Source: Vicinamibacterales bacterium (lineage in GTDB: Bacteria; Acidobacteriota; Vicinamibacteria; Vicinamibacterales; UBA2999). Taken from it: a stretch of DNA of 64,000 bases. The translations under genes were made by a program, and so were the position numbers. A model generated the notes under the pieces. It was not told the origin of the DNA and ran no database searches. It saw only the letters and a list, made by a program, of their open reading frames with translations. The DNA lies in contig JBFWOG010000018.1 in the NCBI GenBank assembly GCA_050250645.1, forward strand, positions 138-64,137, written 5' to 3'. How positions within the stretch are numbered: the stretch's first letter is position 1; the number at the start of each line of letters is the position of its first letter. This document shows positions 1,316 to 40,239 of the stretch, in pieces.

Positions 1316-1456
1316 GGTGCCAAGGGTGCCAGGGGTGCCAAAGGTGCCAGGGGTGCGCCGTCAGGGTGCCACGGGTGCCAAGGGTGCCAAAGGTGCCAGG
1401 GGTGCGCCGTCAGGGTGCCACGGGTGCCCAGGGTGCCACGGGTGCCAAGGGTGCGC
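1316..1456 (+). repeat. 9-bp tandem array, GGTGCC subtype (15 units; three are 13-nt GGTGCGCC variants)
   Basis: Units GGTGCCAAG/AGG/AAA/ACG/CAG start at 1316, 1325, 1334, 1343, 1352, 1365 ... 1450, between divergent icd and the SnoaL-like gene. Confidence 0.95.
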
Positions 1457-1513
1457 CAGCAGGTAGCACGGGTGGGGCGGCAGGAATGGCGGCGGCGTGG
1501 GAGAATCCAGCGC

Positions 1514-1897
1514 ATGGCCTCGAATCCGGTCGAGCGGTACCTGGCGGCGCTGGGCGCAGGGGACTTCGATGTGGCGCGGGCGTGCCTGGCGGACGACTTC
1601 ACGTTCTCGGGCTGGTTCGGGCGGTACGACTCGCCCGACGCGTACCTGGCGGCGATGCGCCGGCTGCGGGGATTCGTCGAGGGCATGGACGTGCGGCACG
1701 TCTTCGCCCACGGTCCCGAGGTGTGCCTGATCTACACGAGCCACACGCGGAACGGCGACGCGGTGCCCGCCGCGGCCTGGTTCCGCCTGGACGGCGACCG
1801 CATCCGCTCGCTCGAGGTCATCTGCGACTCGCGGCCGTTCCAGGCCTTCTGGCAGGAGGCGCTCGGGGAGTCAGACGCGGGTTCCACCGGTTCCTGA
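1514..1897 (+). CDS. SnoaL/NTF2-like fold protein (127 aa)
   Basis: MASNPVERYLAALGAGDFDVARACLADDFTF..WFRLDGDRIRSLEVICDSRPF has the typical NTF2-like length and pattern. Confidence 0.8.
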   Translation: MASNPVERYLAALGAGDFDVARACLADDFTFSGWFGRYDSPDAYLAAMRRLRGFVEGMDVRHVFAHGPEVCLIYTSHTRNGDAVPAAAWFRLDGDRIRSLEVICDSRPFQAFWQEALGESDAGSTGS

Positions 1898-1914
1898 GTT
1901 CCTCGGGTTCCGGG
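1880..1914 (+). repeat. 9-bp array, GGTTCC subtype (4 units), spanning the SnoaL stop codon
   Basis: GGTTCCACC GGTTCCTGA GTTCCTCG GGTTCCGGG. Confidence 0.75.
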
Positions 1915-2027
1915 GGCCTGCGGCCCGTCCGCGGATGGACGCGGATGGACGCGGATGGCTGGCGCTCGCGGGGATTGGCGTCCGGGAGATCCCCGGGCGG
2001 CGCCTGCACCCGCAGGGTGCAGCGGAT

Positions 2028-2097
2028 GGGCAAGGGACGGCCAGGGGCAAGACCAGCCACGGTCCGACCAGGTCTTGCCCCTGGCCGTCCCTTGCCC
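2028..2097. repeat. Perfect 27-bp inverted repeat with a 16-nt loop
   Basis: GGGCAAGGGACGGCCAGGGGCAAGACC (2028-2054) and its exact reverse complement (2071-2097), between convergent genes. Confidence 0.95.
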
Positions 2098-2280
2098 GCC
2101 GGCCGCGCCGCTCCGCGGCGCGGGCGCCGCCCCACGTCGGACGCCTCCGTGTCTCCCGTGGCCTTCTCCGTGTCTCCGTGTCCGCGGAGCGGCCCCGACC
2201 AGGCTCCGGCGTGCGACGATTCGGCAACCGCTGTGCGTCCAGCGCTCGGCGTGCTCTGTGTGCCCTGTGGACCGTCGCCG

Positions 2281-4608
2281 TCAGAACCGGAAGAGACGCG
2301 TCAGCTTGATGACGAAGGCGCGGTTCCTGAGGCCCGTGCCGTTCGGGCGGGTGTCGCGCTCGTCGGTCCACACGAGGAAGAGCTCGCTCCCCGGCCGGTA
2401 CTCCCAGCGGTAGCGGAGGTTGCTGCTGAAGGTCCGGTCGCTCGAGTTGTACTGCACGAGCGCGCTGGCGAACATCCGCGGCGAGAAGGCGTAGTCGCTG
2501 CGCGTCCGGAACAGGCGCTGGATGACACGGCCGGCCGGCAGGTCGAGGTCGTTGAAGGTCAGGCTCGGCTCGAACGACAGGTGGTTGGTCACCGAGACGC
2601 GGCCGCTCGAGAAGCCGATCGCGGTGAGCGTCCCGTCGTAGAACTCGCCGCGCTGCACCGAGAACGTGCCCGAGACGCGCCGCTGCTGCCCCAGCATGTA
2701 GGACACCTTGACGTCGCTGAAGTCGTAGGCGCCGGGCGCAATGCGCACGCCGCCCCCCACGGAGAACGGCACGAACAGCCGCTCGTAGTTGCGGGTGGCC
2801 TCGACAGTCGCCTGGTCGCTCGTTTCGAGCTCGGTGTTGAACTTCGCGCTCTGCTGCCGCGACTCGAGCACGCCGGCGCCGTTCTCGTAGTAGTCGAGCG
2901 CCGCCTCCCACGTGAACTTGCGCACGGCGGCGATGCCGCGGGGCCGCGGGCTGAAGCGCGCGGTCACCGACGACTTGCGGAAGTCGTCGCGCCGCACGAA
3001 GCCGACCTGCGGGTTGAAGTCGGCGCCCACCTTCAGGCGCTCGGCCTGCAGGCCGTACCGGTCCGCCAGGTAGTCGAACTTGGCCTGGTAGCTCTCGTTG
3101 TCGCCGCCGAGGTGCTCCGAGGCGGTGCGGGCGTAGAACGCCCCCATCTGGACGTTCTGGAAGAACGAGAACGCCGCGTCCACGCCGTACGACTGGCTGG
3201 CCGGCCCGCCCCCCGGTGAGACCGACCGGTTCGTGAACATCGCGCCGACCGCGCTCCGCCGCAGGATGTCGTGCTTCACGCGGAGGACCGTGAAGTTGGT
3301 CGCCGCCGTCGCGCTGAGCGGCTCGTCCCCGGCCTGGATGTTCATCACCCCGACCGCCCACGGGCCGACCTTGCCGGTCAGCCGGCCGCCCACGTCGATG
3401 GGGATCACCCGCCCGGCGTTGAGGCCGATGCGCCGGCTGTAGAACAGGTAGGGCGTGTCGCTGCCTCCCCCGCCGCCGCCGGCGCCGGATCCCCCGCGGG
3501 CGAAGTCGAACACCCCGCGCCCCTCGAGGAAGAAGTCGCGCTTCTCGGGAAAGAACAGGCTGAAGCGCGTCAGGTTGACCTGCTGCTCGTCCACCTCGAC
3601 CTGCGCGAAATCGGTGTTCACCGTGAGGTCCGCGGTGAGGTTCGCCGTCACGCCGTACTTCACGTCGCCGCCCGCCGTGCCGTCCCACTCGTTCGACCGC
3701 GCCGGCACCGCCGTGCGATCGGTGGTCACGTTCGCGATCGCGTACGGCTTCACCTCGAGGTTCTTGCTCGCGGGCGGCAGGTCGAGCCCGACGAGCGTGC
3801 CGGCGGCCGACACCCGGTTGAGCGCCTGCGGCCCCGCGAGGTACGCCGGCACCGGCGTCAGGTAGGTCCACTCGTTCTTCCGCCGGATGGACCGCCGCAT
3901 CTGCAGGCCCCACATCTGGCCGGCGCCCGACTGGTAGCGCAGCGTCTTGAACGGGATCGCCATCTCGACGACCCAGCCGCCGTCGAAGCGGCCGCCCTTC
4001 ACGTCCCAGACCGGGTTCCAGTCGGTGTTCGACCCGCCCTCGTCCACCACGGAGTAGTCGGCCCGCGCGCCGAGCGGGTTCGCGTAGAACATGAAGCCGC
4101 TGCGCCGGTCGTAGAACGTGTCGAACATGACGCCGAAGTGGTCGTTGTTGCGCAGCCCCGCCGTGTCGCGGCGCAGTTCGTTGGCCACCCACCGCTCCGG
4201 CGGGGCATCGTCCCAGCACCGGCACGTGACGTACATGTTGGTGTCGTCGTACATCACCCAGACGTCGGTGCGCTCGGACGAGGGCGCCCCGGCGGTCGGG
4301 GCGACCTGGATGAACCCGCCGAAGGGCTGTTCGGTCCGGTAGACGTCCTCGTCGAGGCGCCCGTCGAGCCGGAGGGGCTCGGTGAGGTGGATGGCGCGCA
4401 CGGTGGCACGGCCGGCCGCGTCCCGGGTGATCGTCTCGGGCGCGATCGGGGCCGGCGGGCCGTCGATCACCCGGCCGGGGCTTCCCGGGGCGGCGCCCCC
4501 GCCCGCGTCCTGCGCGGCGGCGACGGGGGCGAAGAGGACGAGCAGGACGAGGGCGGAAAGGGACGAAGAAAACACGAAATCGCGCATGGGTTCCCGAAAG
4601 CGTCGCAT
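2281..4608 (-). CDS. CBM9-like / DUF5916 outer-membrane beta-barrel protein
   Basis: Signal peptide; N-terminal [12 protein letters not shown]...SERT sugar-binding-like domain; NPDFGQVE-like [29 protein letters not shown] motif; C-terminal Phe. Start may be 4587. Confidence 0.8.
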
Positions 4609-4670
4609 ACCGTCGAGGTCGAAGTCGAGGGACTCGCTCCCGGGAGACCACCCGGTGTAATCTTGGCGCC

Positions 4671-5165: not shown

Positions 5166-5174
5166 GGAGGCGAC

Positions 5175-7477: not shown

Positions 7478-7807
7478 ATGCAGAAAGCCGTCAAGCTCGC
7501 GCTCGCCGTCATCCTCGCCCTCGGCCTGCTCGGCCCCGTGGCGCTCGGCGCCATGCACGGCGCCGACGAGGTCACGATGACCGGCAAGATCGTGTGCGCG
7601 CTGTGCACGCTCAACAAGGCCGACCAGAAGGACTGCCAGGACGTCTTCGTGTCGAGCGACGATGTCGAGTACTACATCGAGAAGAACAAGACCGCGACCG
7701 ACGCCGGGCACGTGTGCACCAGCGAGGTCTCGGCGACCGTGACGGGCACCGTGTCGGAGAAGGACGGCAAGAAGTGGATTGCCGCCTCGAAGATCACCAA
7801 GCGGTAG
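7478..7807 (+). CDS. Small secreted Cys/His protein, DUF6370-like (109 aa)
   Basis: GAGGAG RBS; signal peptide; TMTGKIVCALC..C..YY..HVC..VTGTVSEKDGKKWI pattern. Confidence 0.7.
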   Translation: MQKAVKLALAVILALGLLGPVALGAMHGADEVTMTGKIVCALCTLNKADQKDCQDVFVSSDDVEYYIEKNKTATDAGHVCTSEVSATVTGTVSEKDGKKWIAASKITKR

Positions 7808-7860: not shown

Positions 7861-7869
7861 GTTGTACGG

Positions 7870-7958
7870 GGTTCGTCAGGTTCGTCAGGTTCGTCAGGTT
7901 CGACGGGTTCGACGGGTTCGTCAGGTTCGAGGGTTCGTCAGGTTCGACGGGGTCGACC
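7870..7958 (+). repeat. 9-bp array, GGTTCG subtype (10 units)
   Basis: GGTTCGTCA x3, GGTTCGACG x2, GGTTCGTCA, GGTTCGAG, GGTTCGTCA, GGTTCGACG, GGGTCGACC. Confidence 0.95.
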
Positions 7959-7960: not shown

Positions 7961-8377
7961 TCAGGCCTCGCGCTCGATGCGGACGCGGAGCATCGCGACG
8001 CCGATGAAGAGCATGAGCAGCATCCCGCCGCCCCCGAGCTGGTTGACGCACCGCAGGCGCACGTGTTCGCCGGGCCGCGCCTCGAACTCGAAGCTGTGGC
8101 CCACGAGGGTGTTGTGGGCCTTCAGGGTGTGGACGCCCGGCCGGATCTCGCGCGTCAGCTCGCGGCCGTAGCGGATGGGCTCCCACCGCTCGCCGTCGAG
8201 CCACAGGTTCACCGAACGGTCCTGGATGTCGTTGGGGGCGTTGCGGACGACGGTCAGCCAGGTGTTGCCCGGATCGACGCAGAGCCCGGGCTCGCCGTCT
8301 TCGCCGCCGTGCCAGGCGCGCTCGAAGTCGTCCGGCGCGAACAGCGCCGCGCCGATGTCGTCGGTGACCGTGGACAC
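7961..8377 (-). CDS. Hypothetical protein (small beta-rich domain with a hydrophobic C-terminal segment)
   Basis: GGAGG RBS before GTG; non-shadow amino-acid composition. Confidence 0.7.
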   Translation of the reverse strand: MSTVTDDIGAALFAPDDFERAWHGGEDGEPGLCVDPGNTWLTVVRNAPNDIQDRSVNLWLDGERWEPIRYGRELTREIRPGVHTLKAHNTLVGHSFEFEARPGEHVRLRCVNQLGGGGMLLMLFIGVAMLRVRIEREA

Positions 8378-9447: not shown

Positions 9448-9495
9448 GGGGACAGTCCCGGGACAGTCCCGGGACAGTCCCGGGACTGTCCCCCC
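9448..9495. repeat. Four tandem 11-bp palindromes GGGACWGTCCC
   Basis: GGGGACAGTCCC GGGACAGTCCC GGGACAGTCCC GGGACTGTCCCCC between divergent gluQ and the LytS-type kinase. Confidence 0.9.
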
Positions 9496-9632
9496 TCTGT
9501 CCCCCCTCCGTCCCCGCCCTGGCCCGGCTCCGTTCGATGGCGGTGGACGGCCGTCCGATCGGGCCGGGCGACCGCTCGCCGGAGACCGGGCATGCGCCCG
9601 CCGGCGCTGGCGTATCCTCGACAGGACGGCCG

Positions 9633-17148: not shown

Positions 17149-17958
17149 ATGACGAGCCTGGCCGCCCTCGCGACGTCGTTCGTCCTGCTGTGGGTGGTGT
17201 CGCTCGTCCGCCGCGACGCGAGCATCGCCGACATCTGGTGGGGACCGGCGCAGGTGCTCGCCGTGCTGGCCGCCTGGCCGGCCGGGCCGGACGCGAGGGC
17301 CTGGCTCGTGGCCGCCCTCGTCGCCGCCTGGGCGGCGCGGCTGGCGTGGCACATCGGGAGCCGGCACGCCGGCGAGGACCCGCGCTACCAGGCGTGGCGT
17401 GATCGGCACGGCCCGCGCTGGTGGTGGCTGAGCCTCTTCCAGGTGTTCCTGCTGCAGGCCGCCGTCGCGTGGGTCGTAGCGTGGCCCGTGGCCGCCGCGC
17501 TCAACGCCGGCACGCCCCTCGGGGCCCTCGACCTCGCAGGGGTCGTCCTCGCGGCGGCGGGCCTGGCCATGGAGACGGTGGCCGACCGGCAGTTGCAGCG
17601 CCACCGCGACGCCCCCGCAACACGCGGCCGGGTGCTCGACACCGGGCTCTGGCGCTATTCGCGCCACCCGAACTACTTCGGCGAGGCCGTGTTCTGGTGG
17701 GGACTCGCCCTGGCAGGCGCGGGCGCATCGGGCGACTGGCGCGTGCTCGCCAGCCCGGTCCTGCTCACGGTGCTGCTGCTGCGCGTCTCCGGGGTCACGC
17801 TGCTCGAGGCATCGCTGCGCGCGAACCGGCCGGGATACGCCGACTACGCGCGTCGGACGCCGGCGTTCGTGCCGTGGAAGCCGGGTTCGTCAGGTTCGAC
17901 GGGTTCGTCAGGTTCGACGGGTTCGACAGGTTCGTCGGGTTCGACTCGCGCGTTCTAG
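17149..17958 (+). CDS. DUF1295 / steroid-5-alpha-reductase-like membrane protein
   Basis: SIADIWWG, EDPRY, ETVADRQL, TGLWRYSRHPNYFGE and Y..Y..RTPAFVPW motifs; C-tail encoded by the repeat array. Confidence 0.92.
   Translation: MTSLAALATSFVLLWVVSLVRRDASIADIWWGPAQVLAVLAAWPAGPDARAWLVAALVAAWAARLAWHIGSRHAGEDPRYQAWRDRHGPRWWWLSLFQVFLLQAAVAWVVAWPVAAALNAGTPLGALDLAGVVLAAAGLAMETVADRQLQRHRDAPATRGRVLDTGLWRYSRHPNYFGEAVFWWGLALAGAGASGDWRVLASPVLLTVLLLRVSGVTLLEASLRANRPGYADYARRTPAFVPWKPGSSGSTGSSGSTGSTGSSGSTRAF
17884..17946 (+). repeat. 9-bp array, GGTTCG subtype (7 units), inside the DUF1295 3' end
   Basis: In frame; encodes GSS GST GSS GST GST GSS GST. Confidence 0.95.
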
Positions 17959-18466: not shown

Positions 18467-19510
18467 GTGGACGTCCTCGACCACCTGACTGCGCACGGCC
18501 ACGAGCAGGTCACCATCGCCCGCGACCCCGCGGCGGGCTACGTCGGCATCGTCGCCATCCACAGCACCGCGCTCGGCCCGGCCGTCGGCGGCACGCGCCT
18601 CCGGGCCTACGGGTCGTTCGACGAGGCGCTGACCGACGCACTGCGCCTCTCGCGCGGCATGACCTACAAGAACGCCCTCGCGGGCCTGCCCTTCGGCGGC
18701 GGCAAGTCGGTGCTCCTCGGGCCGCCACCGCCGGATCGCGCGGCGTTCTTCCGGGCCCACGCCCGCGTCATCGAGCAGCTCGGGGGCGCCTACGTCGCCG
18801 GGGAGGACGTGGGGACGACCCCAGCCGACATGCAGGTGATGGCGGAGGTGACGCGGCACGTCGGCGGCCTGGTCTCGGGCGTGGGCGACCCGTCGCCCTA
18901 CACCGCCCACGGCGTACGCCGCGCCATGGAGGCCGCGGCCGACGCGCGGTGGGGGCCGGGGGGCCTGGCGGGCCGCACCGTCGCCATCCAGGGCCTCGGC
19001 AGCGTCGGGCGCCACCTCGCGTCGGAGCTCGCCGGGTTCGGCGCGCGCCTGATCGTCGCCGACGTGGACCCGGGCCGGGTCGAGGACGCCGTGGCCGCGC
19101 ACGGCGCGACGATGGCGGACCCGGCGGCCATCCACGCCGCGGCGGCCGACGTGTTCGCGCCCTGCGCCCTCGGCGGCGTGCTGGACGACGGGACGATTCC
19201 CGCCATCCGTGCCGCGATCGTCTGCGGCGCGGCGAACAACCAGTTGCTCGAACCCCGCCACGCCGGCGACCTGGCCGCGCGCGGCATCCTGTACGTGCCG
19301 GACTACGTCGCCAACGCGGGTGGAGTGATCAGCGGCAGCGTGGACCTGGCGGGCTGGCCCCGCGCGCGCATGACCGCGGCGCTCGACGGCATCTACGACA
19401 CGGTCCGGTGGGTGCTCGCGCTCGCCGACGCCGACCACCTCACGCCAGCCGCCGCCGCGGACCGCCTTGCCGAGCACCGGCTCGCCGCCGGGCGTGCCTC
19501 AGGAACCTGA
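18467..19510 (+). CDS. Glu/Leu/Phe/Val dehydrogenase (leucine-dehydrogenase-like)
   Basis: IAIHST.LGPA.GGTR-like motif, LSRGMTYKNA, GGGKSV, GEDVGT, QGLGSVG, CGAANNQL, PDYVANAGGVI. Confidence 0.95.
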   Translation: MDVLDHLTAHGHEQVTIARDPAAGYVGIVAIHSTALGPAVGGTRLRAYGSFDEALTDALRLSRGMTYKNALAGLPFGGGKSVLLGPPPPDRAAFFRAHARVIEQLGGAYVAGEDVGTTPADMQVMAEVTRHVGGLVSGVGDPSPYTAHGVRRAMEAAADARWGPGGLAGRTVAIQGLGSVGRHLASELAGFGARLIVADVDPGRVEDAVAAHGATMADPAAIHAAAADVFAPCALGGVLDDGTIPAIRAAIVCGAANNQLLEPRHAGDLAARGILYVPDYVANAGGVISGSVDLAGWPRARMTAALDGIYDTVRWVLALADADHLTPAAAADRLAEHRLAAGRASGT

Positions 19511-19545
19511 GGATTCCGGGTTCCTCAGGTTCCTCGGGTTCCCAA
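19499..19545 (+). repeat. 9-bp array, GGTTCC subtype (one inverted unit plus about 4 direct units)
   Basis: TCAGGAACC (inverted), then GGATTCCG GGTTCCTCA GGTTCCTCG GGTTCCCAA around the dehydrogenase stop. Confidence 0.7.
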
Positions 19546-19574
19546 CCTTCAATCTGAGATCTGCAATCTGAGAT

Positions 19575-20162
19575 CTATCTGTTGACCGTGACCACGACGC
19601 CCTCGCACGCGCGGGCGCCGTGGCGGCGGTAGCCATGCGGCTGGTCCGACTCGAAGTAGATCGAGTCGCCGGCGTCCAGGATGTGCTCGGTCTCGCCGAT
19701 GGTGATGCCGAGCCGCCCCGACTCGACCAGGACGAACTCTGATCCGGGATGGTCGTGGCGGCGCACGCGCGGGCCCGCCGCGAGGAAGCGGACCCAGTAG
19801 GCGTTCGACGCCCGCTCGGTGGCCTCGTAGTCCAGGCACTCGAACTCGAACACCGGCTCCCGGCCTCCCATCCGCTCGACGAAGCGCCGGCGCGCGGCTT
19901 TGCGGACGACGCCGACCCGCTGGCGCGCGGCGCCGGTCTGGAAGAAGTGGTCCAGCCCCACGCCGAAGACCAGCGCGATGCGGAGCAGCGTCGGCAGCGT
20001 CGGGAACAGCCGCCCGCGCTCCAGCTTCGACAACATCGCCGGCGACAGCCCCGTGTGGCGGCCCAGCTCGACGAGTCCCATCTTCTTCCGCAGCCGGAGG
20101 GACCGGATGCGGTCGCCGATGCCGTAGGTGCGCAGGCCGTCGGTCAGGGTCGGCGAAAGCAT
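19575..20162 (-). CDS. XRE-family HTH plus cupin transcriptional regulator
   Basis: IRSLR...GL.ELGRHTGLSPAMLSKLERG HTH; H.HPGSEF..VESG..GDSIYF...PHGY cupin; GAGGAG RBS before ATG 20162. Confidence 0.92.
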   Translation of the reverse strand: MLSPTLTDGLRTYGIGDRIRSLRLRKKMGLVELGRHTGLSPAMLSKLERGRLFPTLPTLLRIALVFGVGLDHFFQTGAARQRVGVVRKAARRRFVERMGGREPVFEFECLDYEATERASNAYWVRFLAAGPRVRRHDHPGSEFVLVESGRLGITIGETEHILDAGDSIYFESDQPHGYRRHGARACEGVVVTVNR

Positions 20163-27939: not shown

Positions 27940-29643
27940 ATGTCCGACGAGAATCCCGTCCCCGCTGCCACCCCCACGCTGGACTTCATCCGCGAGATCG
28001 TCCGGGCCGACGTCGCCGCCGGCACCAACGGCGGCCGCGTCGTCACGCGCTTCCCGCCCGAGCCGAACGGCTACCTCCACATCGGCCACGCCAAGGCCAT
28101 CAGCCTCGACTTCGGCATCGCGCGCGAGTTCGGCGGGGTCTGCAACCTGCGCTTCGACGACACCAACCCGGTGAAGGAGGACGTCGAGTACGTCGACTCC
28201 ATCAAGGCCGACGTCCGGTGGCTCGGGTTCGACTGGGGCGACCGCGAGTACTACGCCTCGGACTACTACGAGCGGCTCTACGCGTTCGCGGAGCACCTCA
28301 TCGGGAAGGGTGTCGCCTACGTGGACTCGCTCTCGGCCGACGAGATCCGCGAGCACCGCGGGACGCTCACCTCGCCCGGCCGCAACTCCCCCTACCGCGA
28401 CCGGCCCGCGGCCGAGAGCCTGGACCTCTTCCGCCGCATGCGCGCCGGGGAGTTCCCCGACGGCGCCCACGTGCTGCGCGCCCGGATCGACATGGCCGCG
28501 CCGAACCTCACGATGCGCGACCCGGTGCTGTACCGCATCCGCCACGCGGCGCACCACCGGACGGGCACGGACTGGTGCATCTACCCGATGTACGACTTCG
28601 CGCACCCGCTGTCCGACGCGATCGAGGGCATCACGCACTCGCTCTGCACGCTCGAGTACGTCGACCACCGCCCGCTGTACGACTGGGTCGTGGCGCACGC
28701 CGACGTGCCGTCCCCGCCGCGCCAGTACGAGTTCGCCCGGCTCAACCTGAACTACACGGTGATGAGCAAGCGGAAGCTGCTCCAGCTGGTCGGGCAGGGG
28801 CACGTCGCCGGGTGGGACGACCCGCGGATGCCGACGGTCGCCGCGCTCCGGCGCCGCGGCTACACGCCGGAGTCGATCCGCGACTTCTGCCAGCGGGTGG
28901 GCGTCGCCAAGAAGGAGAACGTGATCGACATCGGCCTGCTCGAGCACTGCGTGCGCGAGGACCTCAACAAGCGCGCGCCGCGCGGCATGGCCGTCCTGCG
29001 GCCGCTCAAGGTCGTGCTGACCAACTACCCGTCGGGCACGACCGACGCGATGGACGTCGTCAACAACCCCGAGGACCCGTCGGCGGGCACCCGCAAGGTG
29101 CCCTTCGGGCGCGAGCTCTACATCGAGCGCGACGACTTCATGGAGGACCCGCCGAAGAAGTTCTTCCGCCTCGCGCCGGGCCGGGAGGTCAGGCTGCGGA
29201 ACGCGTACCTCATCACGTGCCAGGACGTGATCACGGACGCCGACGGCCAGGTCACCGAGCTCCGCTGCACCTACGACCCCGCCACGCGGGGCGGCGACGC
29301 GCCCGACGGCCGCAAGGTGAAGGCCACCCTGCACTGGGTCGCGGCGCACGCCGCCGTCACGGCGGAGGTGCGGCTGTACGACCGCCTCTTCAGCGTCGAG
29401 GACCCCGACGGCGAGGCGTCGCGGCGCGAGGTCGACATCACGACGCTCATCAACCCCGCCTCGCTCGAGGTGCTGACCGACTGCCAGGTCGAGCCGATGC
29501 TCGGCGAGGCGCCGGCCGGCAGCCGCTTCCAGTTCGAGCGCCTCGGCTACTTCGCCGTCGATCCGGACAGCGCTCCCGGCCGGCCCGTCTTCAACCGCAC
29601 GGTGTCGCTCAAGGACGCGTGGGCGCGGATTAGCAGGAAATAG
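27940..29643 (+). CDS. glnS: Glutamine--tRNA ligase
   Basis: [61 protein letters not shown] and FQFERLGYF motifs. Confidence 0.98.
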
Positions 29644-29747
29644 GGTGCCTGGGGGTGCCTGGGGTGCCTGGGGTGCCTGGGGTGCCTGGGGTGCGCCGTC
29701 AAGGTGCCAGGGGTGCCAGGGGTGCCAGGGGTGCCAAGGGTGCGCTG
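29644..29747 (+). repeat. 9-bp array, GGTGCC subtype (11 units including one GGTGCGCCGTCAA), directly after the glnS stop
   Basis: GGTGCCTGG x5, GGTGCGCCGTCAA, GGTGCCAGG x3, GGTGCCAAG, GGTGCGCTG. Confidence 0.95.
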
Positions 29748-29757
29748 GGTGGGGGGG

Positions 29758-30225
29758 TCAGCTCTGCGCGGCGTCGACCGGAGTGGCGTCGAGGACGCGC
29801 ACGAGGACGTCCGGGGCGATCCTGACCAGCAGGCCTCTGCGGCCGCCGTTGATGTAGATCTGCGGCAGGTCGAGAATCGACCGCTCCACGTAGACGGGCA
29901 GCGCCTTGCGCGTGCCGAAGGGGCTCGTGCCGCCGACCAGGTAGCCCGTGTGCTTCTGGGCCGTCGCCGGGTCGCACGGGGCCACGGTCCGCGCGCCCAC
30001 CTGGCGCGCCAGCGCCTTCGTCGACACCTCGCGGTCGCCGTGCATCAGCACCAGCAGCGGCCGCCGCGCCTCGTCCTCCATCACCAGTGTCTTGATGACC
30101 GCGTGCTCGTCCACCCCGAGTTCCCGCGCGGAGACGCGCGTGCCGCCGCGCGGTTCGTACCGGTACTCGCACTCCTCGAAGTCAATACCGTGAGCCCGGA
30201 GGGCCAGCGTCGCCTGGGTTGCCAC
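29758..30225 (-). CDS. ybaK: YbaK/EbsC Cys-tRNA(Pro) deacylase
   Basis: VIKTLV (catalytic Lys) and TGYLVGGTSPFG (GGxSP) motifs, plus YINGGRRG; 155 aa. Confidence 0.92.
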   Translation of the reverse strand: MATQATLALRAHGIDFEECEYRYEPRGGTRVSARELGVDEHAVIKTLVMEDEARRPLLVLMHGDREVSTKALARQVGARTVAPCDPATAQKHTGYLVGGTSPFGTRKALPVYVERSILDLPQIYINGGRRGLLVRIAPDVLVRVLDATPVDAAQS

Positions 30226-30242
30226 GGGGGTAGCTTACTCAG

Positions 30243-30420
30243 GGTTTGTCAGGTTCGTCAGGTTCGACAGGTTCGGCAGGTTCGGCAGGTTCGACAGGTT
30301 CGGCAGGTTCGACAGGTTCGGCAGGTTCGGCAGGTTCGACAGGTTCGGCAGGTTCGACAGGCGGACGGTCGCCAACAGCGGAACCCGACGAACCTGTCGA
30401 ACCCGACGAACCCGACGAAC
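30243..30420 (+). repeat. 9-bp array, GGTTCG subtype: 13 direct units (30243-30359) plus about 4 inverted units (30381-30420)
   Basis: GGTTCG(T/A/G)CA repeats, then CGACGAACC/TGTCGAACC (reverse complements). Confidence 0.95.
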
Positions 30421-30425
30421 ACCGT

Positions 30426-32864
30426 TCATTCCCGGAGCAAGGCGACAGGGTCCATGCGCCTGACGCGCAGGGCGGGCAGCACGCTGGCCACGACGGCGAC
30501 AGCGAGCAGCGTCAGGGCCACGAGGACAAAGGTGAGCGGGTCGGTCTCGCTCACGCCCCACAGGAGGCTTCCGAGGAACCGGGTGGCGGCAAGGGCGCCG
30601 AACGCCCCGGCGGCAAGGCCCACCAGGGCCATGTGGATGCCCGGCAGCGCCGCCGCGCGGACCGCGCCGCCCACCGTCGCCCCCAGCGCGAGGCGGATGC
30701 CCAGTTCGCGCGTGCGCTCGGCCACGCCGCTGGCGATCAGCCCGTGGATGCCGATGGCCGCCAGGAGCAGCGCCGCGCCGCCCAGCAGCCCGACGAGCAG
30801 GGTCAACATCCGCTGCTCGCCCGTCGCCGCCGCGCGGACATCGGTGAGCGCCCGCACATCCGCCACCGCAAGCCCGGGGGCCGCCTCGCGCATGGCCCTC
30901 CGCAGCGCCGGCTCGGCCACCGCCGCCGGACCCGCCGTCCGCACGACCCAGCTCGGGGTGAACCACGTATGCACGACGGCCATCGCGCTCGCCGGGAACT
31001 GCGCGGCAGGCAGGTAGACGCCCGGCAGGGCATCGACCGGGCCGTAGCCGTTGAAGCCGCCGCGCTGGCGCACGTCGCCCACGACGCCGACGATCTCCCG
31101 GAGTTCGCCGCTCATCGCCACCTGGCGGCCGATCGCCGCCCCGTCCGCCAGGTAGCGCCGGACGAAGGTCTCGTTCACGACGACCACCGGCGCACCGGCC
31201 TCGCCGTCGCCGGCGCCGATGGCCCGGCCGGCGACCACGGGGATGGCCAGGGTCTCGAAGTAGCCGGGCGTCACGTAGGTCGCCGTGGTGAACACGCCGT
31301 CGCCCTCCGCCTCCCCACCCGCGCCGACGATCCGCGCCCCCATGTTCAGGATCCTGTCGTAGGGCAGGCCGAGCGAGACGGCAACGGACTCGACGCCGGG
31401 CAGCGCCCGCAGCCGCGCCAGCCCCTCGTCGAACAGCCGCAGCACCGCGTCGTGGTCGCGATACCGGGCATCGTCGAGTGACGCCGAGATCGCGACGACG
31501 TTGCGGGCGTCGAATCCGGGCGGGAGCTGGGTCAGGGCCATGAACGTCCGGAGCAGGAGCCCCGCGCCGACCAGCAGCGTCATCCCGAGCGCGACCTCCG
31601 CGACGACCAGCACGCGGCGCGCCCAGCCCCGCGCGCCACCGGCGATGGACCGGGTCCCGCCCGCGGCCAGCGCCGGCGCGAGGTCGAGACGGCTGGCCTG
31701 CAGCGCCGGCACCAGGCCGACGGCGAGCGCGGTGACCGCGGTGAGGACCGCGGTCACGGCGACCACTCGCCCGTCGAGCACCGCGGCCGGCCCCGGGCCG
31801 ATGAACTGGTCGGCCATGGCCTGCAGTGCCCGCACGCCGGCGGCGCCCACGGCGAGCCCCAGCGCGCCGCCGATGCCGGCGATGAGCGCGCTCTCGGCGA
31901 GCAGCTGGCGGATCACGGCACCGCGCCCGCCGCCCAGGGCCAGGCGCGTGGCGATCTCGCGCGTGCGGGAGCTCGCGCGCGCCAGGAGGAGCCCCGCCAG
32001 GTTGACCATCGCGATCACGAGCACGAGGCCGACGGCGCCCCAGAGCAGCAGCAACGGACGCCGCGACGCTTCCGTCAGGCCGGCCTGGAGGGGTATCGCG
32101 CCATGGGTAATCCGCAGGCCGCCGTCCGCCTCCGTCCGCCGCAGCGAGGGGTCGGCCAGCGCGGCCATCTCGGCCCCCGCCTCCGCCCAGGACACGCCGG
32201 GCCGGAGCCGGAGCGCGATGAGGTAGTTCTCCCCGCCGCCCTCGCCCGTCGTCGACGGCCGGACCGGCGTCCAGACGTCGGGATCAGGCGCGTCGTGGAA
32301 GGTCGCGGGCATGACGCCGACGACGGTGTGCGGCTCCCCGCGCAGCAACACCCGGCGTCCCACCGCGCCGGGATCCCCGTCGAAGAGCGTCCGCCACAGG
32401 CCGTCGCTCAGGATGGCGACCTTCGGGCCGTCCGGCCGGTCTTCCTCCCGCGTGAACTCGCGGCCCAGCACGGGCGACACGCCGAGCACGCCGAAGTACC
32501 CCGCGCCGACGCGCTGCTGGGTGATGGCCATCGCGCGGTCCCCGGCGAGGAGGTTCACCGAGGCCCGCATGCCCGTGTACACCGCGGCATCGACGGTCGT
32601 GGCCGCCGACTCGACGGCGAACCAGGTCGCGCCGGAGCTGGCGATCTCCTCGGCCACGCGCGCGCCGTCCCTGGTGTAGATCCGGGTCAACAGGCCGAGG
32701 CGGTCGGGCTGCGGGTACGGCAGCGGCTTGAGGAGCACCGCGTCCACGAGGGAGAACACCGCGGTGTTGGCGCCGATCGCCAGCGCCAGGGTCAGGATGG
32801 CCGTGACGGCGAACCCCGGGTTCTTCACGAGCATCCGCCACGCAAACCGCAGGTTGTTGCCCAC
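30426..32864 (-). CDS. ADOP-type duplicated ABC permease (MacB_PCD+FtsX x2)
   Basis: [13 protein letters not shown]...[15 protein letters not shown]; two FtsX halves ([21 protein letters not shown]); ends DPVALLRE; GGAGGAG RBS before GTG 32864. Confidence 0.93.
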
Positions 32865-32957
32865 GTGCTCTCCTCCACGGGCACGCCGCGCGTCAGCGGA
32901 TGCGGACGGCGCGCCGCACCAAATCACAAGATCACAAGATCACCAGATGCCCCAAAT

Positions 32958-35612: not shown

Positions 35613-36884
35613 ATGCCGCAGACGTCCGACCTCACGCTCTCCGCCCTCGTGCAGGCGCGCATCGCCCACCCGTCCCCCATCCGCCAGATCATGAAGATGG
35701 CGGAGCGCCAGAACATCCTCGCGATGGGGCTCGACCCGGACGCGGTGATTTCCTTCGGCGGTGGCTGGGTCAACCACCCCGCGCCCGACGGGTTCCGGGA
35801 GGCCTACCAGGAGGTGGTGTCCGACGCGGCGCTCTTCCACGCGAGCGGCGGCTACACCGCGACGCTCGGCGAGCTGGCGTGCCGCGAGCAGATCGCGCGC
35901 TTCGAGGCGCACCTCTTCGGGGTGCCGCGACTCGCCGCGGCGAACATCGCGATCGGCCTCGGCAGCACGCAGCTCACCCACGACCTGTTCCGGACGCTGA
36001 TCGACCCCGGCGACACGGTCATGATTCTCGACCCGACCTACGCCAACTACGAGGGACAGCTCGCCTTCGCCGCGCCGGGCGCGACCATCGTCCGGCTGCG
36101 CGTGCTCGACCCGGCGACGTGGGCCTACCTGCCGGAGACCGACCCGGAGGGCGTCAAGGCGGAGTTCGATCGCCTCTTCGACCTCCACAAGCCGCGGCTC
36201 GTCCTGTTCGGCGCGCCCGACAACCCGACGAGCCAGGTCGTCCCGCAGGCGCTCGCCGAGCACATGCGCGCGCGCACGGCGGAGGCCGGCGCCTGGCTGG
36301 CGATCGACTTCGCCTACAAGTGCCAGTTCTTCTCGGCCCCGCCCGCGTACTACGCCTGGTCGCCGGCCGACCACCCGCACGTGATCGGCATCCACTCCAA
36401 CTCGAAGTGGGCGCGCGGCCTCGGGCGCCGGCTCGGCTGGATCGAGGCCGACACGCGCGTCATCGACGGGCTCGAGCGGGTCCAGCAGTGCAGCATCCTG
36501 TGCCCGGACACGCTCTCGCAGATGACCATGGCCCGCTACCTGGCGCGGGCGATTGACGACGGGTCGCTGCGGGCGTACGTGGACTGGGCCAACGGCCTGT
36601 ACCGGGAGGCGGCGCGCGTCACCGTCGAGGCCGTGGACACGTTCATCGGGCGGCCCCGCCTGACGCCGGCGGGCGGCCTCTACACGGTCGTGGACGTCGG
36701 GAGCGACGCCGACGCGTTCGTCCCCCGCGCGCTCCAGGCGACGGGCGTCCTCGTCGTCCCGGGCCGCGGCTTCGGCCCGTCGATCGCCAACGGCGTCCGC
36801 ATCTCCTACGGCCCGATGGTGATGACGCCGGAGCGCATCCGCGAAGGCCTCGAACGGCTCGGCCGCTGGATGAGGGGGAGCTAG
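35613..36884 (+). CDS. PLP-dependent aminotransferase class I/II
   Basis: ISFGGG.., DPTYANY, PDNPT, DFAY, SNSKWARGLGRRLGW (PLP Lys), GGLY; TATCAT 6 nt before ATG. Confidence 0.9.
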   Translation: MPQTSDLTLSALVQARIAHPSPIRQIMKMAERQNILAMGLDPDAVISFGGGWVNHPAPDGFREAYQEVVSDAALFHASGGYTATLGELACREQIARFEAHLFGVPRLAAANIAIGLGSTQLTHDLFRTLIDPGDTVMILDPTYANYEGQLAFAAPGATIVRLRVLDPATWAYLPETDPEGVKAEFDRLFDLHKPRLVLFGAPDNPTSQVVPQALAEHMRARTAEAGAWLAIDFAYKCQFFSAPPAYYAWSPADHPHVIGIHSNSKWARGLGRRLGWIEADTRVIDGLERVQQCSILCPDTLSQMTMARYLARAIDDGSLRAYVDWANGLYREAARVTVEAVDTFIGRPRLTPAGGLYTVVDVGSDADAFVPRALQATGVLVVPGRGFGPSIANGVRISYGPMVMTPERIREGLERLGRWMRGS

Positions 36885-36887
36885 ACA

Positions 36888-36986
36888 GGTTCGTCAGGTT
36901 CGACGGGTTCGACGGGTTCGACGGGTTCGTCAGGTTCGTCAGGTTCGTCAGGTTCGTCAGGTTCGTCAGGTTCGACGGGTTCGGAC
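36888..36986 (+). repeat. 9-bp array, GGTTCG subtype (11 units)
   Basis: GGTTCGTCA/GGTTCGACG units starting 3 nt after the aminotransferase stop. Confidence 0.95.
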
Positions 36987-37025
36987 CGGGAGAAACGTTT
37001 CAGCGCCTGGCTGCATCAGACGATC

Positions 37026-37523
37026 ATGAGCAGCGGAGCACCCCACGCCATGACCACCTGGACGGCCACGCCGGAAGGACTCGTCGCGCCGTGCGCGGCG
37101 TGTGGGCAGAAGAACCGCGTCCGGCTCGATCGGCTCGGCGCGCGCGGGCAGTGCGGCAAGTGCCACCAGGCGCTGCCGGCCGTGGACGGCCCGGTGGACG
37201 TGCCGTCGGCGGCGGCGTTCGACGCGCTGGTCGCGGGCGCGCGCGTGCCGGTGCTCGTGGACTTCTGGGCGCCGTGGTGCGGCCCGTGCCACATGGTCGC
37301 CCCCGAACTGGCGAAGGTCGCCGCGGCGCACGCCGGTGAGTGGCTCGTCGCCAAGGTGAACACGGACGCCGTGGCCGAGGTGTCCGAGCGGCTCGTCATC
37401 CGCTCGATCCCCACGCTGATGCTGTTCACCGACGGCGCGCTGCGCCACCGGATGAGCGGCGCGCTGCCCGCCGAGGGCATCGAGCAGTTCGTGGCCGCCG
37501 GCCTCGCCGCCCCGCGCCGGTAG
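37026..37523 (+). CDS. trxC: Thioredoxin 2 with an N-terminal zinc finger
   Basis: CAACGQKNR..CGKC zinc motif; VDFWAPWCGPC active site; IRSIPT. Alternative start at 37050. Confidence 0.92.
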   Translation: MSSGAPHAMTTWTATPEGLVAPCAACGQKNRVRLDRLGARGQCGKCHQALPAVDGPVDVPSAAAFDALVAGARVPVLVDFWAPWCGPCHMVAPELAKVAAAHAGEWLVAKVNTDAVAEVSERLVIRSIPTLMLFTDGALRHRMSGALPAEGIEQFVAAGLAAPRR

Positions 37524-37534
37524 CGCGGGCCGGC

Positions 37535-38119
37535 TCAGGGGGACGGACGCGCGCCGGCTGCCCGCCGATCGATCGCCTCGCGCACGATGCGCGCCTGCCA
37601 CAGGTGCCGCCGATCGTGCGCCGGAATCACCCCCAGCACGGTCGACAGCCGCATGCGGAACACCGGGAAGAAGGGGTTGGGGCCGACGACCCGGTTGGCG
37701 TCGACGAAGGCCGCCGCGGCCACCAGCCGGCGGTACGGGTCGTGGCTGGCCACCAGGTTGGGGACCAGCGTCGCCCTCGACGCGGTCGACGCGGGCACCA
37801 CGGCCTTGGGCGCCCCCGCCCGCATCCGCACGGGCGGCTCGAGCGTCCTCAGGAACCACCGCCCGATCCCGCTCGGCTCGAGTCCCGAGAACGGCCCCGG
37901 CCCGCCGTCGCGCGCCTGCTCGGCCAGGGGCAGGAAGCGCTGCAGGTAGAACTCGTTGGTCGCCCGCAGGTGGTCGAGGCACTGGGCGATGCTCCAGGTC
38001 TTGCCGGGGGCGACCTGCCAGTTCACCTCCTCGTCGGTGAGCCCGTCGACCAGCGAGCGGGCGTCGGCCTCGCAGGCCGCGACCTGGTCGAGCAGGGACT
38101 GCAGGGGGGCTGGAAGCAT
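37535..38119 (-). CDS. DinB/YfiT-family protein
   Basis: WSIAQCLDHL and H..RHL.QA metal-binding helices; GAGG RBS before ATG 38119 (GTG 38131 also possible). Confidence 0.88.
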   Translation of the reverse strand: MLPAPLQSLLDQVAACEADARSLVDGLTDEEVNWQVAPGKTWSIAQCLDHLRATNEFYLQRFLPLAEQARDGGPGPFSGLEPSGIGRWFLRTLEPPVRMRAGAPKAVVPASTASRATLVPNLVASHDPYRRLVAAAAFVDANRVVGPNPFFPVFRMRLSTVLGVIPAHDRRHLWQARIVREAIDRRAAGARPSP

Positions 38120-38127
38120 CGCGCACC

Positions 38128-38562
38128 TCACCGCTGGTCGTAGGGCAGGCCGATGTAGGTCGGCTCGCTCTCGGGCCGCAGGATCATCTGGGTGTACTGG
38201 AAGACGAGCGCGTAGCGCCCGTCGGGGGTGCGGCCGGACGTCAACGGCTGCTGGAACCGCACGTGCCAGTCGTAGAGCTCCTGGAACACGGTCACGCCGA
38301 CATCGCAGTATTCCGGGAACTTGCCGTTGGCGCGGAGGAACTGCGCGAACTGGTCGCGCACACGCGGCACGGAGGCCGCAAAGCCGTCCGGCGTGGCCGC
38401 CTGGCGCAGCCGCCCGATCTCGGCCGCCATCGCGCTCGTGCTGGCGGCAATCCGGGCGACCTCCTGCGCGCTCACCTCCTGCGACGCCCAGGCCGCCCCC
38501 GGCGCCGCGGTCGCCGCCGCGCCGAACATCCCCCCGGTCACCACCTCTCGACGTGTCAGCAT
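38128..38562 (-). CDS. Hypothetical protein with a Tat-like signal (MLTRREVV)
   Basis: AGGAGG RBS before ATG 38562; globular C-terminal half; abuts DinB. Confidence 0.75.
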   Translation of the reverse strand: MLTRREVVTGGMFGAAATAAPGAAWASQEVSAQEVARIAASTSAMAAEIGRLRQAATPDGFAASVPRVRDQFAQFLRANGKFPEYCDVGVTVFQELYDWHVRFQQPLTSGRTPDGRYALVFQYTQMILRPESEPTYIGLPYDQR

Positions 38563-38683
38563 GCGGCCTCCTGTTGCCATCGGCGCGGGCGTCCCGTCAT
38601 CGTAGCCCGTCCGGCCGTGCGGGCACACACGGGATCCCCCGCCGCGCCCGGCGCGTCGAACCAGAGACGTAGCCGAACTGCCC

Positions 38684-39316
38684 ATGAGATCCACCGCCTC
38701 CCCCGGCGTCTCCCCCGCCCGCCTCCTGGCCGCCGGCGTCCTCGTCCTCGTGGTGCTTGCCGGCACCCGCTGGCTCTACGCGGGCCTGGCCGGCGTCGAT
38801 GAGTCGCCCGCGGCCCCCGGCTCCCTGTATGCACTGCCGGCGACGCCGCTCGGCAGCAGCACGACGGCCGGCCTCGGCCGCTACGACGGCCGGGTGTCGC
38901 TCGTCGTGAACATCGCGAGCGCGTGCGGGCTCGCGCCGCAGCTGACCGGCCTCGAGCGCCTCTACCAGCGGTACCGCGACCGCGGATTCGTCGTCCTGGC
39001 CTTCCCGAGCGACGACTTCTGGCAGGAGCCCCTCGACGCCACGGGCATCCGGGCGGCGTGCGCGACCCGGGGGGTCACCTTCCCCGTCTTCGACAAGGTC
39101 TCGGTTCGCCCCGGCCCGGCGCAGGCGCCCGCCTACGCCTTCCTCACCTCGACGGGCAACACGCCGCTCTGGAACTTCGCGAAGTACCTGGTCGGGCGCG
39201 ACGGCACGGTCCGGGCCTTCTTCGGCAGCCTCGTGGAGCCGGACGATCCGGCGCTCACCTCGGCGATCGAGGCCGCCCTGGCGGCGGCCGGCCCCGTTGC
39301 CGCCGGGCGCGAGTAG
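38684..39316 (+). CDS. Cys-type glutathione-peroxidase-family protein with an N-terminal membrane/signal segment
   Basis: VVNIASACG, LAFPSDDF.QEP, FPVFDK and WNFAKYLV motifs; the active-site codon is TGC. Confidence 0.88.
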   Translation: MRSTASPGVSPARLLAAGVLVLVVLAGTRWLYAGLAGVDESPAAPGSLYALPATPLGSSTTAGLGRYDGRVSLVVNIASACGLAPQLTGLERLYQRYRDRGFVVLAFPSDDFWQEPLDATGIRAACATRGVTFPVFDKVSVRPGPAQAPAYAFLTSTGNTPLWNFAKYLVGRDGTVRAFFGSLVEPDDPALTSAIEAALAAAGPVAAGRE

Positions 39317-39376
39317 CGCGTCCGGCATTGCACCCGGCGTATCCCCGCCCGCGGTCCTGCCGTATGATGGCCGGAC

Positions 39377-40186
39377 ATGCCACACGCCCCTGTCATCTGC
39401 GCCGTCGACCTCGAGCGCCTCTCGACCCGGGTGATCTACCACGCCGCCGGCCTGGCGGCGGCCCTCGGTGCGCCGCTCGTGCTCGTCGCGGCGGTGGGTG
39501 ACGGCGACTCGACGAGGGATGCCACCGCCGCCCTGCAGCGCGCCTTCGCCGAGGCGATCCCGTACGACGCGTCCGTGGCCGGGGAGCCGGAGGTGTCGGC
39601 GGCGCCAGGCGCCGCGGTTGACGTCGTCCTGGCCGAGGCGGCCGCGCGTGACGCGGCCCTCATCGTGGCGGGCACGCGCGCCCGGGGTGAGCTCGCCAGG
39701 CTGCTCCTCGGCTCGACCAGCGCCGACCTGCTCCAGCGGACGGACCGGCCGCTGCTGCTCGTGCCCCCGACCGACGTGGACATCGTGACGCTCGTCGGCA
39801 CCGGCGTCAGCCTGCACTTCGGGGCCGTGCTCGTGGCCGTCGACCTTGCCGAGAGCAACACGAACCAGCTCGACGCGGCAAGCCAGCTGGCCGCCCTGGC
39901 CCGCCAGCCCCTGCTGGCGATGACGGTGGCCGACAAGAGCGGCGCCTCCGATCACGACGTTGCCGCCGCGCTCCGGTCCGCGACCGCGAGGATGTCGCCG
40001 GTCGCCCCCTCGGCCTACATCGTGCGCCGCGGGGATCCCGCCCAGGAGATCGCCCGCGCGGCGCTCGCCGAGCAGGCGGGCCTGGTGGTGATGGGCCTGC
40101 GGCGCGAGGGCCGCGGCAGGCCCGGCGCGACCGCGACGGCGGTCCTGCAGTCGCACCGCGCCCTCGTCCTCGCGGTTCCGGGGTAG
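39377..40186 (+). CDS. Tandem universal stress protein (2x UspA)
   Basis: VICAVD..; LIVAGTRARG....LLGS.S..LL....PLLLVP; second half VLVAVD..LVVMG..VL....LVLAVP. Confidence 0.88.
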   Translation: MPHAPVICAVDLERLSTRVIYHAAGLAAALGAPLVLVAAVGDGDSTRDATAALQRAFAEAIPYDASVAGEPEVSAAPGAAVDVVLAEAAARDAALIVAGTRARGELARLLLGSTSADLLQRTDRPLLLVPPTDVDIVTLVGTGVSLHFGAVLVAVDLAESNTNQLDAASQLAALARQPLLAMTVADKSGASDHDVAAALRSATARMSPVAPSAYIVRRGDPAQEIARAALAEQAGLVVMGLRREGRGRPGATATAVLQSHRALVLAVPG

Positions 40187-40194
40187 GGACTGGG

Positions 40195-40239
40195 GGTTCC
40201 TCCGGTTCCTCGGGTTCCTCCGGTTCCTCGGGTTCCGCC
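40195..40239 (+). repeat. 9-bp array, GGTTCC subtype (5 units)
   Basis: GGTTCCTCC GGTTCCTCG GGTTCCTCC GGTTCCTCG GGTTCCGCC. Confidence 0.9.

Follow-up and report, generated by a model that had tools for sequence, protein, structure and literature searches.

Polar nonamer tandem arrays at gene boundaries of a Vicinamibacterales genome and their association with PF05635 cassettes

Heptamers with the unit GGGAATC in Xanthomonas and GGGGA(C/T)T in Nostoc PCC 7120 form hundreds of dispersed intergenic arrays without known function (Rehm et al., 2015; PMC4692102). The open reading frame (ORF) nearer to such an array lies at the 5' side of the G-rich strand whatever its own orientation, i.e., the G-rich unit is on the sense strand after stop codons and on the antisense strand before start codons (Rehm et al., 2015). 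These arrays overlap stop codons, occur as inverted pairs and favour about four units, and their copy number and sequence differ between close species at the same spacers (Rehm et al., 2015). Oriented arrays of TAACTGA are found in Beggiatoaceae (MacGregor, 2015; PMC4679880). Inverted repeats around a small gene are known from the ORF-bearing intervening sequences (IVS) of 23S rRNA in Coxiella burnetii and Leptospira, where an S23p ORF occupies the loop, the terminal inverted repeats form the stem and RNase III carries out excision (PMC4990558). Here we describe arrays of a nonamer, GGTKCS-N3, in a stretch of 64,000 nucleotides (nt) from a Vicinamibacterales bacterium (hereafter the window; C18:138-64137 of a 5.21-Mb draft genome, G000, with 54 contigs and 72% GC). 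Tandem Repeats Finder (TRF) and direct reading located nine period-9 arrays in the window, about 78 units in sum, all G-rich on the plus strand and with GGTGCC, GGTTCG or GGTTCC as core. This bears out the nine arrays listed in an earlier sequence-only reading of the window, which overlooked a tenth, inverted GGTTCG arm at 30381-30420. On balance the evidence favours the view that the GGTKCS nonamers are a lineage-specific superfamily of polar gene-boundary short tandem repeats that spread by copying of modules and that are arms or half-arms of cassettes.

A pattern chain search of the whole genome for chains of at least three GGTKCS-N3 units returned 357 arrays with 2,672 units, 183 on the plus and 174 on the minus strand, and with 3 to 31 units per chain. 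The core was GGTTCG in 140 arrays, GGTGCC in 126, GGTTCC in 84 and GGTGCG in seven. A four-unit pattern had 1,115 matches in the genome and the reversed control pattern only four, so the arrays do not arise by chance. Neither are they an assembly artefact, which the sequence-only reading had named as a risk: over a stretch of 2.65 kb, one short contig from a second assembly (GCA_050246075.1) matches this genome at 99.8% identity and has the same unit counts, with no difference within the two arrays that it spans. As this is the only other assembly found, the comparison is uninformative on length polymorphism. The nonamers are part of a wider load of about 1,080 arrays with a period of 5–11 nt, among them the families AAGAATC (151 arrays), GTGATCTT, GATCTGGT, GCCATCTGT and ACGCGGATGG. 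Together these short arrays occupy 55.6 kb of approximately 566 kb intergenic DNA, about a tenth, to which the nonamers contribute 26 kb. Genes were called with our own codon-likelihood caller (4,235 genes, 89% coding). The array midpoint was outside called genes in 308 of the 357 cases, although intergenic DNA makes up no more than about 11% of the sequence, and the remaining 49 arrays are coding and specify Gly-Ser-Ser/Thr, Gly-Phe-Val or (Glu/Ala/Asn)-Pro-x-type tripeptide repeats.

An array may be regarded as a directional module that consists of a short leader, a run of GGTKCS cores each with a constrained triplet and, in the GGTGCC subtype, a terminal GGTGCG. The subtypes belong to one superfamily, as had been supposed: core types are mixed in 190 of 375 strict-period chains, and one core passes into another through single steps along the series GGTTCG > GGTTCC > GGTGCC > GGTGCG, with GGTTCG>GGTTCC>GGTGCC steps outnumbering the reverse. 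The nonamer frame stands, but the three positions first written as NNN are not free. Genome-wide the triplet after GGTTCG is [T/A]C[G/A] in 93% of units, and that after GGTGCC is mostly AGG, AAG or TGG. A step from GGTGCC to GGTGCG was found 137 times, GGTGCG was followed by another in-phase unit only seven times, and 135 chains end in GGTGCG, which is therefore a terminal unit. A 13-nt interruption, GGTGCGCCGTCA(G/A), occurs in the window at 1352, 1401 and 29690. It was taken originally as a sign of a common template for the two GGTGCC arrays of the window, and a common template is indeed supported by the 49-nt unit, the terminal GGTGCG and the recurrent leader; however, the interruption is family-wide and the two window arrays are not special in this respect. 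It is present in 86 copies at 51 of 110 GGTGCC loci, and consists of a terminal unit and the leader of the next one (GGTGCG-CCGYCA-R). As 20 of 34 intervals between successive copies measure 49 nt, the GGTGCC arrays are multimers of a 49-nt module, i.e., four nonamers and the 13 nt. Composite arrays keep the order GGTTCG, GGTTCC, CATCTG-type. This anatomy of leader, body, terminal unit and punctuation argues for templated copying and against pure slippage, and indicates that preformed modules were copied and that local slippage followed. The contrary explanation, that each array grew independently by slippage from a chance local seed, without dispersal and with likeness due to mutational convergence, is improbable. 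It would fit the wide range of unit numbers and the site C2:243464, where a congener (G001, about 80% nucleotide identity in genes) has GGACGCC and this genome a repeated GGACGAACC, resembling growth from a local seed. It does not fit the identical 9-mers, triplet constraint, punctuation, terminal unit and leaders at hundreds of loci in one species only, nor the single order held by composite arrays.

The orientation of the arrays follows the gene boundary. Of 305 intergenic arrays, 223 have a G-rich strand that runs 5'>3' away from the nearest boundary and 82 one that runs toward it. The bias is significant in every context, namely convergent (30:9), divergent (35:14), tandem-stop (77:33) and tandem-start (70:12) spacers. 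Neighbours of opposite orientation face each other with the G-rich arm first (36 plus-minus pairs, three minus-plus). Nearly all other repeat families of the genome keep the same rule, often more strictly, e.g., AAGAATC (129:16) and GATCTGGT (22:4). Two explanations had been put forward for the uniform strand of the window arrays. The first, a 3' untranslated region (UTR) element, is right in so far as stops are favoured: an array lies within 12 nt for 36% of the stops facing one, compared with 8% of starts. The polarity is however the same at starts, and since it is equal there and in convergent spacers it is not tied to the sense strand of the 3'-UTR. Gene strand as the rule was ruled out by the tandem spacers, in which the G-rich strand is sense in 92 cases and antisense in 117. 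A G-poor leader before starts was also considered as sole cause of the polarity, and was rejected because convergent spacers show it too.

The second explanation was a replichore-oriented signal similar to Chi or to the FtsK-orienting polar sequences (KOPS), read by a machine linked to replication or segregation. When the orientation was examined genome-wide the strands proved near-even, and a modest skew bias was seen. Where the local GC skew is positive there are 75 plus and 101 minus arrays, and where it is negative 108 plus and 73 minus (Fisher p = 0.0015), so that the G-rich strand is on the negative-skew strand in about 59–68% of cases; some contigs are strongly one-sided (plus:minus 23:5 in C10, 0:9 in C14 and 16:3 in C18). 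In a logistic model the skew bias remained with position controlled (odds ratio, OR, 0.48, p = 0.0045). The effect is small, with an OR of about 2 or roughly 60:40, and the side of the spacer explains orientation far better (OR 7.6, p = 3e-16). Facing pairs within single spacers are common, the arrays are intergenic and absent from the congener, and their length is equal in both orientations. A replichore signal is consequently very improbable as the reason for these arrays. The position in the spacer decides orientation, and the skew bias is secondary and not the organising principle. That all nine window arrays are on the plus strand is due to a contig with a local plus bias and negative skew, in addition to position effects.

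Stop codons show a further regularity. Where an array abuts a stop and reads away from the gene, the stop is TAG in 61 of 82 cases (74%) compared with 39% TAG genome-wide (p = 7e-11), and the junctions TAG-AGCCAG-GGTGCC and TAG-GGTTCG recur at many genes. Truncation of genes by the arrays was ruled out: the C-termini are within 2 residues of those of the congener's orthologues in 89% of cases, a proportion no different from that of other genes, so that the arrays sit at the native stop. The orthologous stops of the congener are TAG in only seven of 18, so that TAG accompanies the array, be it through a target preference or through a later change. The idea that all arrays have a conserved leader upstream, TAG or another, was rejected since TAG is present at only about 30% of them, and the GGTGCC 'leader' CCAG is merely a partial unit.

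The copying agent was sought among known mobility enzymes. Arrays that are intergenic, often in inverted pairs, and that begin at or near stops with the TAG border just described could be elements like repetitive extragenic palindromic (REP) sequences and REPINs, moved by a REP-associated tyrosine transposase (RAYT) or another HUH single-strand transposase, and an origin of this kind would account for the weak replication-direction bias too. Such an origin is nevertheless exceedingly improbable. The co-distributed HUH/RAYT enzyme that the sequence-only reading proposed to look for was not found, as no match to Y1_Tnp (PF01797) was obtained at E <= 0.01 anywhere in the genome, although controls were found in six of 14 genomes; moreover, the arrays are direct 9-nt repeats, not imperfect palindromes of 20–40 nt, and TAG is no general array leader. 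There was likewise no match to reverse transcriptase (PF00078) in the genome, which rules out retro-mobility by an Avd-like protein together with a reverse transcriptase.

The genome does encode six PF05635 ("23S rRNA intervening-sequence protein") genes and four PDDEXK_3 (GxxExxY) genes. One PF05635 gene, C21:24541-24879, lies between inverted GGTGCC arrays of nine units on the plus strand to its left and 20 units on the minus strand to its right, and the resulting cassette spans C21:24438-25276. The PF05635 copy of C19 lies between GGTTCC arrays and that of C14 between AAGAATC arrays. A PF05635 ORF between terminal inverted repeats is present in two or three copies in the genome (C21 and C19, C2 in part), none of them inside the window. 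Homologues of the C21 protein were found in 11 of 16 related genomes tested, and inverted tandem arrays stand on both sides, G-rich arm first, in 10 of the 12 homologue loci where the gene could be placed. Nine of these 10 loci have arrays with a GGTGC(C/G/T) or GGTTC(G/C/A/T) core and a period of 6–10 nt, which makes GGTKCS the arm motif of one clade of PF05635 cassettes. The only solved relative of the cassette protein is XCC0516 of Xanthomonas campestris (PDB 2GSC), from a genus with polar repeats.

The distribution among relatives points to a recent event. The four-unit GGTTCG pattern is absent from the 40 closest relatives, congener included, and the degenerate GGTKCS four-unit pattern has at most 18 matches in any of 400 other genomes of the phylum, compared with 1,115 here. 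Most of these matches come from GGTGCC-type arrays of a few genomes within the same order, and no GGTTCG nonamer arrays are among the phylum-survey matches listed. The survey of Acidobacteria, which had been suggested together with the first description, thereby places the GGTKCS family nearly within one species, and a burst so limited makes the spread recent and datable. The congener has a similar density of short arrays (187 per Mb in 1.06 Mb sampled, 207 per Mb here) with different units, e.g., CTCCGTGT, CATCTGTG and CGTGCCCTT. Array-bearing spacers nevertheless coincide: among 502 syntenic spacers, arrays in both species were found in 48 of 90 against 44 of 412 (OR 9.6, p = 1e-17). Out of 37 nonamer spacers here, 17 hold other repeats in the congener, and in side-by-side alignments the flanks are conserved and the interior is replaced. 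Two array hairpins of this genome correspond to ordinary GC hairpins in the congener, one of which is followed by a T run.

It is conceivable, though rather unlikely, that what is conserved is a function, i.e., that the arrays are selected cis-elements such as terminators, insulators or G-quadruplexes, the sequence of which turns over while the position is kept, since any suitable repeat would do. As terminators or insulators they would form hairpins if paired, and the C-rich, G-poor RNA on transcripts that enter a gene would favour Rho. The coincidence of array-bearing spacers in two species despite differing units and the exchange of hairpins at the two sites speak in favour of this, as do the low folding energy of a window transcript (-89 kcal/mol for 30226-30430, see below) and the excess or equality of G over C on the away-reading strand in most polar families. 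Chain lengths peak at 3–5 units, and the GGTGCC module has four units and one terminal unit; a canonical G3+N1-7 x4 motif is present in 103 of the 357 arrays. On the other hand this is only 29%, and the motif is missing from the AAGAATC and GTGATCTT families. Most arrays are solitary and unable to form hairpins, and arrays are also found in divergent promoter regions and within genes. In samples of 20 kb, such arrays were found in none of five relatives without PF05635 and in essentially none of four relatives with it, which makes them a dispensable trait.

The reading of the nonamers as copied cassette arms rests on the inverted GGTGC- and GGTTC-core arrays that bracket PF05635 genes in several Vicinamibacterales genomes. 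Preformed modules, and not independent slippage, would have been the source of a recent spread, after which slippage or unequal exchange would have lengthened or shortened the arrays locally. The arrays would be the arms or surviving half-arms of PF05635-type hairpin cassettes, and where both arms are present the transcript is expected to fold into a long stem that could serve as a terminator or as a substrate for RNase III. The genome itself encodes neither a transposase of the RAYT/IS200 type nor a reverse transcriptase that could be the copying agent.

Several observations weigh against this reading. First, no mobility enzyme came out of the PF01797 and PF00078 searches. Second, an inverted partner within 200 nt is lacking for about three quarters of the arrays, the two subtypes combined in 14 of 36 facing pairs differ and are unable to base-pair, and the spacers between gene-less facing arms are unrelated between loci, with no conserved body of the kind found in miniature inverted-repeat transposable elements (MITEs). 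Third, there are only 2–3 PF05635 cassettes with GGTGC/GGTTC cores for 357 arrays, and four relatives with 4–14 PF05635 genes showed no repeat bloom in the 20-kb samples. Fourth, the spacers shared as array-bearing by two species fit a selected function equally well, and gene boundaries come from our own crude caller, starts being especially approximate.

PF05635 may be necessary for the bloom of repeats, the five relatives without the gene having no 5–11-nt arrays in 20 kb each, but the PF05635-bearing relatives without a bloom mean that the gene is not sufficient; they also rule out PF05635 copy number as a predictor, although the samples are small. An interpretation as MITEs was rejected, since the spacers between facing arms are unrelated and no target duplication is visible at the sites compared with the congener. 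Cargo was considered too; the genes between distant facing arrays are ordinary unrelated genes by translation, and only the PF05635 genes are placed in cassettes. It is tempting to speculate, as a tentative extension with the odds against it, that the GGTGC/GGTTC arrays are recognition arms of the PF05635 (Avd-like four-helix-bundle) proteins and that both form a so far undescribed class of selfish hairpin elements of bacteria. Such elements would insert at gene boundaries, preferentially directly after TAG stops, and would shed gene-less arms that later amplify.

The individual window arrays illustrate these features. The first, a GGTGCC-N3 array of 14.8 units (1309-1457; TRF 1314-1454), has three 49-nt higher-order units (4 x 9 nt and the 13-nt GGTGCGCCGTCAG), with GGTGCG as its last unit. 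The spacer is a divergent one, flanked by a minus-strand gene that starts at 1203 and a plus-strand gene that starts at 1514. A GGTTCC-N3 array of 3.9 units (1878-1911) overlaps the last codons of the latter gene (1514-1897), whose TGA stop (1895-1897) is a variable triplet of the array itself, and a decamer array, CGCGGATGGA, follows at 1930-1958. The GGTTCG-[T/A]C[G/A] array at 7869-7957 (about 10 units) is found in a convergent spacer, 62 nt past a plus-strand stop at 7807 and about 3 nt, counted from the TRF end, from a minus-strand stop at 7961; it is aimed at the nearer gene end and thus has the minority orientation. The GGTTCG array at 17882-17945 (6.9 units) is coding and in frame, and is translated as the C-terminal tail GSSGSTGSSGST... 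(Gly-Ser-Ser/Thr, GSSGST) of ORF 17149-17958, by its RHPNYFGE motif a putative member of the DUF1295/steroid-reductase-like family. A GGTTCC-TCN array of 2.7 units (19519-19542) begins 8 nt past the TGA stop 19508-19510 and is followed by a heptamer array (CAATCTGAGATCTG) at 19550-19576.

The second GGTGCC-N3 array (29643-29749, 11.2 units) fills a convergent spacer. It begins on the TAG stop of gene 27940-29643, has a single 13-nt punctuation (29690) and ends in GGTGCG; inverted CACAGATG arrays take the place of the nonamers in the orthologous spacer of the congener. The TAG at 29641-29643 reads TTG in the second assembly, where the base is close to the end of the short contig. The other TAG stops of the window abutted by nonamer arrays are 36882-36884 and 40184-40186. 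A GGTTCG array of 12.4 units (30250-30361) is a long hairpin arm that adjoins the start of minus-strand gene 29758-30225. Its partner is the inverted GGTTCG arm (GAACCCGAC x4.4) found by TRF and reading on the minus strand at 30381-30420, which begins 5 nt past the stop (30426) of minus-strand gene 30426-32864, is on the sense strand of that gene and pairs with the end of the longer array. The hairpin of the minus-strand transcript 30430-30226, with both arms, has a folding energy of -89 kcal/mol (z = -7.5). At the site of the inverted arm the congener has an ordinary short GC hairpin and then a T run. The two last arrays are a GGTTCG array of 10.9 units at 36886-36983, beginning 1–3 nt past the TAG stop of gene 35613-36884, and a GGTTCC-TCN array of 5.1 units at 40194-40240, beginning 8 nt past the TAG stop of gene 39377-40186 and followed by an 11-mer array (TCCCCGGACTG) at 40269-40307. 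The statement that most arrays begin near a stop is thus true for five of the nine, which touch one (1878, 19519, 29643, 36886 and 40194), but not for the array at 1314, which stands between two starts, or for that at 17882, which is a coding tail; the array at 30250 adjoins a gene start.

Arrays of other families lie near the window nonamers at 1930-1958, 9449-9533, 19550-19576, 32923-32948 and 40269-40307. They comprise the decamer CGCGGATGGA, a palindromic 11-mer, GGGACAGTCCC (twice), the heptamer pair CAATCTG/AGATCTG and an octamer, ATCACAAG. Genome-wide these families have the same boundary polarity and often follow GGTTCC arrays in a set order. The tRNA_edit (PF04073) gene 29758-30225, between two array-bearing spacers, is inverted relative to conserved neighbours in the congener (G001:C20:50797-51197), which suggests rearrangement at repeat-rich spacers. 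No Rfam family matches were found in the window. At 59078-59623 of the window the gene caller gives two ORFs, 59078-59296 and 59345-59623. Outside the window, ORF C31:18650-19380, read as a putative winged-helix (OmpR/CadC-like) regulator, runs into a GGCACC-oriented array that gives it a Gly-Thr-rich C-terminal tail, and octamer and 11-mer arrays are found upstream of its start. Another element beyond the window, about 270 nt long and rich in hairpins (...GACTGGGAGTGACGCGACAC...CGAAACCGCGCC...GGCGCGGTTTCG...GTCAGCTCCCC...), is repeated at C10:73739-74007, C10:74071-74339 and C11:102178-102422. Every copy is between GGTTCG arrays, and in one case the element is duplicated in tandem along with its own array, with a period of about 340 nt.

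The boundary rule has been known since 2015 and to our knowledge has never been explained. If the GGTGC/GGTTC arrays are recognition arms of PF05635 proteins, a mechanistic origin would be given for the polar tandem repeats of Xanthomonas, cyanobacteria, Bacteroidota and Acidobacteriota, and if the link to the cassettes is causal one type of element would account for many 'junk' repeats of several phyla. What is new here is the directional 9-nt anatomy, the burst limited to a single species, a boundary rule that can be told apart in numbers from a weaker replication-strand effect, and the recurrence of the same core motifs at PF05635 cassettes throughout one order. The arrays also provide proteins with stop codons and with Gly/Ser or Pro-rich tails, and they confuse gene callers.

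Compared with known systems, the nonamers do not have the strong strand skew of KOPS or Chi, the agreement with local GC skew being 59–68% and the OR about 2 after position control. The PF05635 cassettes of C21 and C19 resemble the 23S rRNA IVS in having a small PF05635 gene in the loop and inverted-repeat arms. In contrast to the IVS they lie between protein-coding genes and not in rRNA helix 45, and their arms are tandem arrays of up to 20 units whereas the IVS stem is a unique 28 bp; most nonamer arrays, moreover, have neither a gene nor a partner arm. REP sequences, bacterial interspersed mosaic elements (BIMEs) and REPINs are generally regarded as non-autonomous passengers that depend on a single gene family. 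The nonamers are similarly abundant, intergenic, near 3' ends, often in inverted doublets and lineage-specific, but the genome has no RAYT gene, and the units are direct tandem 9-mers rather than palindromes, without a general GTAG head. Long simple sequence repeats with 5–11-nt units were reportedly described by Mrazek and colleagues in 2007. The nonamers share with these, with the cyanobacterial short tandemly repeated repetitive (STRR) heptamers and with TAACTGA an over-representation as tandem repeats of 7–9 nt, a dispersed, mostly intergenic location and an orientation preference relative to genes, and differ from them in unit, host phylum and module anatomy. TAACTGA arrays mostly face starts and have stops in all frames, while the away-reading strand of the nonamers is open in all frames. 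The closest likeness is to the heptamers of Xanthomonas and Nostoc, with dispersed arrays far above chance, a non-coding bias and the boundary polarity (223:82). Overlap with stop codons, inverted pairs and differences between close species at shared spacers are common to both as well. The nonamers differ from the heptamers in the 9-nt unit, the four interconverting cores, the terminal variant unit and a quadruplex motif in only 29% of arrays. They are also not under-represented in divergent spacers (17% of arrays, 14% of spacers), have a secondary bias against GC skew and occur beside many families of 7–11 nt in one genome of 72% GC. With the defining features that were tested all present, the nonamers are a new family of such repeats in a new phylum and not a new kind.

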